Assembly: GCF_003790525.1 (NCBI RefSeq)
Contig: NZ_CP033636.1
Direction: 5' to 3' (one strand)
Length of the DNA stretch: 64,000 nt
DNA from: Escherichia coli
Lineage (GTDB): Bacteria; Pseudomonadota; Gammaproteobacteria; Enterobacterales; Enterobacteriaceae
Positions 30,323-31,299 of the stretch are shown piece by piece (positions within the stretch are counted from its first letter, which is position 1; the number at the start of each line of letters is the position of its first letter). Made by a program: the position numbers and the translations under genes. Under the pieces are notes generated by a model, which had not been told where the DNA came from, searched no databases, and worked only from the letters and a program-made list of their open reading frames with translations.

Positions 30323-30568
30323 AATCTTCCCGCCTTTACCATCGAAAGCGATAAACCAGAAATCGTCCGTGCCAGTTTCAAGATTTCTGCAACGTTTCAG
30401 ATGCCATCCGCCTTCTCTCGCCCAGATGGTACGGTTATTTCTGGCATTCGTTTTGTCATACCCGTGCTCGTCAAGCCAGCTATCAAAGCTGGTCAGCCCC
30501 AGGTCCTGAACCTCCAGAGAAGGTACACGAATGACCTGCAAGGTATGGCGTGGTCTTGGCTCTCTCAT
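30323..30568 (-). pseudogene. hypothetical gene truncated at its 3' end by IS26 copy 3
   Basis: ORF 30161-30568 starts at 30568 and its reading frame runs into IS26 after about 82 native codons. Confidence 0.4.
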
Positions 30569-30580
30569 CTTGATCTCTTC

Positions 30581-30991
30581 CTAGCGCTGGTCTGGGAAAT
30601 ACGGATATTGCGGGCCATATTCATAATCATGCGGGCCTGGCTCAACTTCCCAGAATGGACGGCCGCTAATTGTCTTTGGACCGCGCTCGTTTACGATGTC
30701 TTCTACATCCTGAATATTAAATGGCATCGTTGCCAGTAACAGCTGATCTTCGGGTGTCAGCGTCACAGTTGCACCGTCGATACGGCTGTAAAGGTCGGCA
30801 AACTGTTTACCTGCACCGTGCAACCGGTGCTCCGCTACACTTCTGATTGCGTGTAAGTCCAGCTCCGCCGCTTCCATGCGATCCACGTATAGTTTCATTT
30901 CTTTACGCAAAGCGCTCAGCTCACGGGTTTTAATAAATCCGTAGGCGTACCCACCCAGGGCGATAACTGCAATGATTGCTAAAATAGCCAT
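30581..30991 (-). CDS. hypothetical protein with N-terminal transmembrane helix
   Basis: 136-aa ORF, hydrophobic N-terminus then charged helical region; no recognised family. Confidence 0.35.
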   Translation of the reverse strand: MAILAIIAVIALGGYAYGFIKTRELSALRKEMKLYVDRMEAAELDLHAIRSVAEHRLHGAGKQFADLYSRIDGATVTLTPEDQLLLATMPFNIQDVEDIVNERGPKTISGRPFWEVEPGPHDYEYGPQYPYFPDQR

Positions 30992-31092
30992 TTATTTTCT
31001 CTTACGTTACTGCGGCCGCCGCTTTAGTCTTAATGTGAAGCCTGGGAATTCGCTGAATGAAGAATACGTTTTCACCCCCAGGCCGACAGCTG

Positions 31093-31299
31093 TTAAGGCG
31101 CGATCCCAACACTCCATTTGTAAGTATCAGGCCCATCTTCTCCGCTGGTGGCATCAGCTACAATCTGTGCATAACGTTCTCCAGCAAGTTCTCTTACCAT
31201 CTGATCCACGACCCATTGCAGATGATGCATTTCATCGGTTCCGCCGTAACGACAAGCCAACTCAATAGCCCGCTCTATTCTTTTTTGTTCTTCAGTCAT
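31093..31299 (-). CDS. hypothetical small protein
   Basis: 68-aa ORF from the track; no recognised family. Confidence 0.25.
   Translation of the reverse strand: MTEEQKRIERAIELACRYGGTDEMHHLQWVVDQMVRELAGERYAQIVADATSGEDGPDTYKWSVGIAP

Follow-up and report, generated by a model that had tools for sequence, protein, structure and literature searches.

Directly to the right of a complete copy of IS26, the window (the whole 64-kb stretch of Escherichia coli DNA analyzed here) holds a minus-strand open reading frame (ORF) whose ATG lies at 30568 and which enters the insertion sequence across 30322/30323. The 246 nt at 30323 to 30568 match, at 100% identity, the opening 246 nt of an 816-nt coding sequence of the IncHI2 backbone (L001 6001-6246), whose 271-aa product, WP_001572439.1, is annotated as "HNH endonuclease signature motif containing protein." What is left of this HNH_2 nuclease gene is codons 1 to 82 of 271; the last two-thirds (570 nt) is gone. 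The gene is intact in pM160133_p1, pQnrB4_020042, pL1, and many other IncHI2 plasmids. The retained part is found in about 1160 plasmid records and the missing part in 1063, nearly full-length in 872. The sequence-only reading of this DNA had proposed that the ORF loses its 3' end to IS26, and comparison with relatives bears this out: a search for a homolog ending exactly at the breakpoint returned none, the intact homolog continuing for 570 nt, and no natural homolog of just 82 codons was found.

In the intact protein, Pfam HNH_2 (PF13391) lies at aa 176 to 222, beyond the breakpoint, and a Pfam scan of the 82-aa remnant gave no match, HNH_2 included. The remnant therefore lacks the catalytic domain and reads as a dead gene, predicted to be without function. 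Its frame stays open into IS26, producing a chimeric frame at 30161 to 30568 on the minus strand (82 native codons plus 53 from the right end of IS26, 135 codons), and a database protein (P0019) has the identical 82 aa followed by an IS26-derived tail. This chimeric frame is a by-product of the junction. It is hardly credible that the 135-aa chimera is a functional new protein: upstream genes on the same strand, the nearest only 12 nt away, could drive its transcription, but its native part matches no domain, the AlphaFold2 model of residues 1 to 82 is poor (pLDDT 39 to 76), and its tail is fortuitous antisense IS26 sequence. Harder still to credit is that the gene ends here naturally or that the junction is an assembly artifact at a repeat. 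In favor of an artifact there is just the general liability of IS26 copies to misassembly; against it, the gene goes on for 570 nt in 872 to 1063 plasmids, and 50 complete plasmids, deposited independently and drawn from several species and countries, show the very same junction.

The genes upstream of the remnant are all intact and lie on the same strand. A 136-aa ORF (30581 to 30991, minus strand; WP_000985911.1) ends with a stop codon that precedes the ATG of the truncated gene by 12 nt, and it is followed by a 68-aa ORF (31093 to 31299, minus strand; WP_000134171.1). Both are conserved in the IncHI2 backbone and annotated as hypothetical, so that the two further ORFs noticed earlier after the truncated gene are real annotated backbone genes. 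One of them had been called membrane-anchored, and this agrees with the hydropathy of the 136-aa protein, which has one N-terminal hydrophobic segment (mean Kyte-Doolittle value of 2.2 over residues 2 to 20) as its likely transmembrane anchor. Searches of Pfam, NCBIfam, PHROGs, and PADLOC gave no match for the 136-aa ORF and, for the 68-aa ORF, only a weak match to phrog_23179 (E = 6e-4), a phrog without assigned function. Further upstream are hipA (31360 to 32685, minus strand, 441 aa; Pfam HipA_C, E = 3.6e-51, and Couple_hipA, E = 3.7e-21) and a hipB-like helix-turn-helix gene (32690 to 32986, minus strand, 98 aa; Pfam HTH_3, E = 4.5e-15), which are labeled a type II toxin-antitoxin pair in relatives. 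A promoter and terminator scan of 30100 to 33400 remained at chance level. The idea that the nuclease is conserved as a gene pair with the 136-aa ORF was rejected because the paralogous nuclease has an unrelated partner and a 42%-identical nuclease homolog elsewhere is without such a partner. Two of the five single-nucleotide differences from the sister plasmid pNDM33-1 fall at 31082, in the intergenic space between the 68-aa and 136-aa ORFs, and at 31856, in hipA; the HipA variant WP_181726440.1 is annotated in pNDM33-1 and WP_000088046.1 in most IncHI2 plasmids.

The IS26 beside the remnant (29503 to 30322, plus strand, 820 bp) is the third complete copy in the window and is 99.5 to 99.6% identical to the other two (10848 to 11667 and 17483 to 18302). 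Exact 14-bp terminal inverted repeats (IRs), GGCACTGTTGCAAA, occupy 29503 to 29516 and 30309 to 30322. Its plus-strand tnpA (705 nt) encodes a single 234-aa Tnp26 with one substitution, G184N: nt 613 and 614 of the element are AA, giving N184 as in IS26-v1, and the copies at 10848 and 17483 encode G184. Higher activity of Tnp26 G184N is credited to Pong et al. 2019 where that work is cited in PMC9019673. The copy at 10848 has an additional V-to-M change at nt 574. Another IS6-family element, at 23548 to 24366 (819 bp; annotated as IS1006 in relatives), carries the 14-bp terminal repeats of IS26 at only 76% identity to it, so IR counts alone overcount IS26; the earlier designation of the element at 29503 as copy 3 was right, the one at 23548 being IS1006-like and not IS26. 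An orphan IS26 terminal repeat at 8916 to 8929 has no partner within 900 bp and is a truncated IS26 end in a qnrS1/ISKpn19 module. The third copy has GGCGAAGC to its left and AATCTTCC to its right, and no 8-bp direct target duplication. The mismatch indicates two junctions from two different events; the identity of the element as IS26 is not in doubt.

Boundaries of the resistance region

The resistance region spans 90 to 30322 (30,233 bp). Everything from 30323 through 64000 is collinear with IncHI2 backbones, with hipBA, a VWA gene, and the ter operons in this stretch, which confirms 30322/30323 as a boundary of the region, namely, its right-hand one. Across 21 kb, this right-side backbone is 99.98% identical to pZ1323SSL0055-2. 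A total of 1160 plasmid records match 30323 to 31340, with every inspected record typed IncHI2A; all close relatives are of this type, as the earlier mention of an IncHI2 backbone had anticipated, and repHI2 was located in the 99.96%-identical pNDM33-1, outside the 64-kb window. The left boundary is a 38-bp terminal IR of the Tn1721/TnAs1 family at 90 to 127 (plus strand; GGGGAGCCCGCAGAATTCGGAAAAAATCGTACGCTAAG read directly). The IncHI2 backbone to its left, at 1 to 89 (minus strand), begins the ~21-kb segment found ahead of the HNH gene on normal backbones and is inverted here relative to the side with HNH, hipA, and ter. A 606-aa ORF at 122 to 1942 (minus strand) is the 3' part of a Tn1721/TnAs1-family tnpA and is 99.95% identical to the copy in pM160133_p1. 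At the other end of the region, a TnAs3-family tnpA (26136 to 29087; family annotation from pNDM33-1) adjoins the 5'-truncated resolvase gene of a TnAs3/Tn21-family transposon (delta-tnpR; 29090 to 29502, minus strand), which abuts the left IR (IRL) of IS26; the first codons of the ORF at 29090 to 29575 are supplied by IS26. The tnpA ORF at 122 to 1942 is ~81% identical to the TnAs3 tnpA at 26190 to 27851 and in inverse orientation to it; the region thus holds two diverged Tn21-family transposase genes.

By BLAST against pM160133_p1, window positions 1 to 1877 match L005 26433-24557 at 99.95% in reverse, and 30323 to 31654 match forward. The junction between the Tn1721 IR and the backbone is intact and identical to that of pM160133_p1, where the DNA corresponding to 1 to 89 lies ~21 kb from the HNH breakpoint; the window shows the opposite relative orientation. 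The 30-kb mosaic had been described as "inserted into or expanded through" the backbone gene, and of these alternatives, only the second stands. Because its flanks are not neighbors on a normal backbone and are inverted relative to each other, the mosaic did not insert into the HNH gene. Insertion is likewise contradicted by the lack of a target-site duplication, the absence of the 3' part of the gene from pNDM33-1, a reciprocal junction present in none of 72,556 plasmids, and the recurrence of the same junction with varied left-hand DNA in 50 plasmids.

Local BLAST showed that L005 38291-47669, including the 3' 570 nt of the HNH gene, is absent from the complete pNDM33-1. This lost stretch holds part of WP_000490638, two small ORFs, an hns-like gene, WP_001194555, a second HNH_2 gene, two more small ORFs, and the 3' end of the truncated gene. 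Its length is 9.4 kb in pM160133_p1, where a helicase module adds 4.4 kb, and ~5.8 kb in a pL1-type backbone; its far edge is now taken by the IR of a Tn3-family element (GGGGTCAGTTTGGATATCGAAAATTATTGTACGTTAAG). The second HNH_2 gene, encoding 285 aa in pL1 (L011 18323-19180) and separated from the truncated gene by 1.5 kb on intact backbones, is wholly deleted in the window lineage. Similarity between the two paralogs is limited to the C-terminal nuclease domain (31% identity over 134 aa). With an hns-like gene and two HNH nuclease genes gone, plasmid silencing or restriction could be altered.

Plasmids carrying the junction

The exact junction between IS26 and the remnant (...TTTGCAACAGTGCC/AATCTTCC...) was found in 50 plasmid records, all IncHI2. 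Their hosts are E. coli, Salmonella, Klebsiella, and Escherichia fergusonii from China, South Korea, and elsewhere; the sources, among those listed, are mostly food animals or food with some humans, and several of the plasmids carry blaNDM-5. To the left of the IS, the neighbor is delta-tnpR in 5 of the 50 (all of the pNDM33-1 family), aac(3)-IVa in 18, and in others a Tn21-type tnpR with a sul3 integron, as in pECY44-1. The IS26 body varies too: Tnp26 at the shared junction has N184 in the window and pECY44-1 and G184 in pZ1323SSL0055-2, a pattern suggestive of crossing over within the IS. Plasmid pZ1323SSL0055-2 has two IS26 copies in inverse orientation, with ATAAAATT and AATTTTAT, inverted 8-bp duplicates of each other, at their flanks. 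The AATTTTAT site is at 6485 to 6492 of the window, within a resolvase gene (6397 to 6969), and is uninterrupted there, making the window arrangement the older of the two. Given the inverted duplicates, pZ1323SSL0055-2 arises from a window-like layout by one further IS26 inversion, and its derivation also includes the gain of an IS26-bounded module. The breakpoint between IS26 and the HNH remnant is a handy clonal marker for a sublineage of ~50 sequenced IncHI2 plasmids, and the changing left neighbors show one fixed IS26 serving as a docking point for the exchange of resistance modules.

The closest relative, pNDM33-1, is a 266,777-bp IncHI2 plasmid of E. coli GD33 from a duck in Guangdong (NZ_CP076648.1/MN915011; Zhao et al. 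2021, PMC8407110). It is 99.96% identical across the whole 64-kb window, including delta-tnpR, IS26, and the HNH remnant, the 30-kb resistance region, and hipBA to ter, and this three-part junction is limited to the five records of its family. Differences amount to 5 single-nucleotide polymorphisms (SNPs), a 15-bp in-frame deletion in the TnAs3 tnpA of the window at 28237, which leaves 983 aa of TnpA, and six 1-bp indels packed into ~660 bp (37141 to 37803) immediately downstream of the VWA gene. The TnAs3 tnpA measures 2952 nt in the window and pZ1323SSL0055-2 and 2967 nt in pNDM33-1. The cluster of indels could reflect homopolymer sequencing errors in one assembly or a decaying pseudogene. 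The subject of PMC8407110 is IS26 and blaNDM-5; in a term search of it, "inversion" is absent, "backbone" appears only in another context, and no discussion of the junction came up. A term search of an ST3-IncHI2 survey likewise met no description of the junction.

Other IncHI2 plasmids show the locus in different states. Both pM160133_p1 (NZ_CP022165.1) and pL1 (NZ_CP071712.1) share the first 246 nt of the gene at 100% identity and the same upstream 136-aa ORF, 68-aa ORF, and hipBA, but their gene runs to 816 nt with its HNH_2 domain and is followed by the backbone genes missing here. In pL1 and pQnrB4_020042, the same hot spot has an IS26 that forms the resistance boundary and cuts a backbone gene (IS26/delta-hns); that breakpoint, however, lies ~3.9 kb farther away from hipA, as measured on pL1, and leaves both HNH genes whole. 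The feature in the window is thus an already known kind, a routine IS26 scar on an IncHI2 lineage that has been sequenced and published, and it is useful chiefly as a lineage marker, with little significance beyond bookkeeping.

Origin of the junction

Without the HNH remnant, the junction between delta-tnpR and IS26 recurs in over 100 further plasmid records; of the 183 records with a query coverage of 80% or more, ~50 reach it via the HNH side. As delta-tnpR/IRL is widespread on its own, it is the older junction, and the one between the right IR (IRR) and the HNH gene is the newer. This IS26 copy accordingly combines one pre-existing and one new junction with no direct duplication, the signature of IS26 intramolecular replicative transposition. 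The inverted and deleted DNA adjoining it is a further likeness to that process, which He et al. 2015 and Harmer and Hall have reportedly described. We think it likely, with a probability of roughly 0.85, that this feature was left, as a right-hand scar, by an IS26-driven rearrangement, a one-ended intramolecular replicative event followed by IS26-IS26 exchanges. Such transposition, resulting in inversion or adjacent deletion, is documented in IncHI2 plasmids (PMC9019673). Pairing delta-tnpR with a tnpR 5' fragment at another IS26 as halves of one insertion was considered and rejected, since the flanks differ (GCTTCGCC versus GGATCAGT).

We propose that IS26 was already resident in the resolvase gene of the TnAs3/Tn21-family transposon and attacked the HNH_2 gene on the same molecule by replicative transposition, which would have joined its IRR to the gene at codon 82. 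The starting layout would have been the conventional one of IS26, delta-tnpR, resistance region, Tn1721 IR, ~21 kb of backbone, and HNH gene. One inverse-orientation attack would then flip the whole block of resistance region and adjoining backbone, yielding the layout of the window. The reciprocal end, made up of the second IS26 copy and the 3' part of the gene, would have been lost afterward along with 5.8 to 9.4 kb of backbone. From then on, the junction would have been passed on, the DNA across the IS being swapped time and again by homologous or Tnp26-mediated exchange among IS26 copies. A conventional layout exists in pM160133_p1 (IS26, tnpA, IR, 21 kb of backbone, and intact HNH gene). 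Because a single inverse attack on it reproduces the window layout exactly, including the inverted left flank, inversion is the preferred version. We infer both this order of events and inversion over direct deletion; the preference rests on parsimony of layout, and the predicted reciprocal product was found nowhere. From two comparisons, we also infer that delta-tnpR is the primary, ancestral neighbor, though it is present in only 5 of the 50 junction records.

The reciprocal product was looked for with a synthetic query joining the 3' part of the gene and AATCTTCC to the IS26 IRL, that is, GGGTAAATCTTCC/GGCACTGTTGCAAATAGTCGG, also written CAGCGGGTAAATCTTCC/GGCACTGTTGCAAATAGTCGG, and 0 of 72,556 PLSDB plasmids contained it. 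None of the 11 other IS26 ends of pNDM33-1 is flanked by AATCTTCC or its complement GGAAGATT, and the second IS26 copy with an inverted 8-bp duplicate that inversion predicts was found in neither pNDM33-1 nor PLSDB. In this respect, the HNH junction, with no recoverable partner copy carrying the inverted duplicate, differs from the textbook case seen in the sister lineage of pZ1323SSL0055-2.

These results bear on two other routes to the same junction. A tentative but serious alternative is a direct adjacent deletion, following an earlier and unrelated inversion that had put IS26 beside the distal part of the backbone segment. One direct-orientation step would cut out, in circular form, 5.8 to 9.4 kb together with the 3' part of the gene, and no reciprocal junction would ever have existed. 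The missing target-site duplication, the absence of a reciprocal junction from every plasmid, and the loss of the deleted DNA from the whole of pNDM33-1 all agree with this, and it fits the junction as well as inversion does, the database containing no intermediate that would tell the two apart. Its cost is a separate earlier inversion ending where a Tn3-family IR, not IS26, now sits, and hence more steps to the observed layout than the inversion model requires. An unlikely route is a simple IS26 insertion with an 8-bp duplication, after which IS26-IS26 recombination carried off the 3' half of the gene, later to be lost. Exchange between IS26 copies is clear at this element, as seen in its varying left neighbors and in the differing IS26 bodies (G184N or G184) among the junction plasmids. 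Nevertheless, the 3' half and duplication lie beside IS26 in none of the 72,556 plasmids or at the 11 other IS26 ends of pNDM33-1, and the old, widespread delta-tnpR/IS26 junction points to a resident IS26 rather than a fresh insertion.

The lost nuclease

Full-length relatives of WP_001572439.1 are confined to Enterobacteriaceae. More distant relatives share the HNH_2 domain only, and some are labeled putative restriction endonucleases by their sources. Other database proteins represent the same gene truncated near residues 121 and 145. A sequence search of the PDB with the intact nuclease returned no matches. The AlphaFold2 model (from a 42-sequence alignment) is confident for the HNH domain only, with a pLDDT of 40 to 75 in the N-terminal domain, so the surviving part of the protein could not be classified. 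The top Foldseek matches to the model of the intact protein are TagI (6ghs) and VcaM4I (6yex), and they are weak (E ~5e-3, TM 0.27). Like these modification-dependent type IV enzymes, a class that combines an N-terminal reader of modified bases (SRA/EVE-like) with a C-terminal HNH, the intact protein has a two-part layout in which HNH_2 is C-terminal after ~140 aa; its N-terminal fold, however, is not recognizable in the model, and the window keeps no HNH domain at all. Taken from predicted folds, the possible connection to type IV restriction is a lead, not a result.

A bolder reading, and a quite improbable one, is that the intact 271-aa protein and the deleted paralog are plasmid-borne type IV-like HNH restriction or defense nucleases whose repeated, independent disruption in IncHI2 plasmids (by IS26 at codon 82 here and by the truncations near aa 121 and 145 elsewhere) was selected and is not a side effect of the hot spot. 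If this were so, loss of the nuclease would allow foreign modified DNA to be tolerated or acquired by the plasmid or by its host. The nearest full-length relative outside IncHI2 (P0017, 42% identical; contigs L014 to L016) lies beside phage-type integrases, and one of its loci also adjoins genes with CTD7, MC3, and LmuB_C (Lamassu-like) domains. Judging from these neighbors, this relative appears to sit at the edge of integrative or defense-island DNA.
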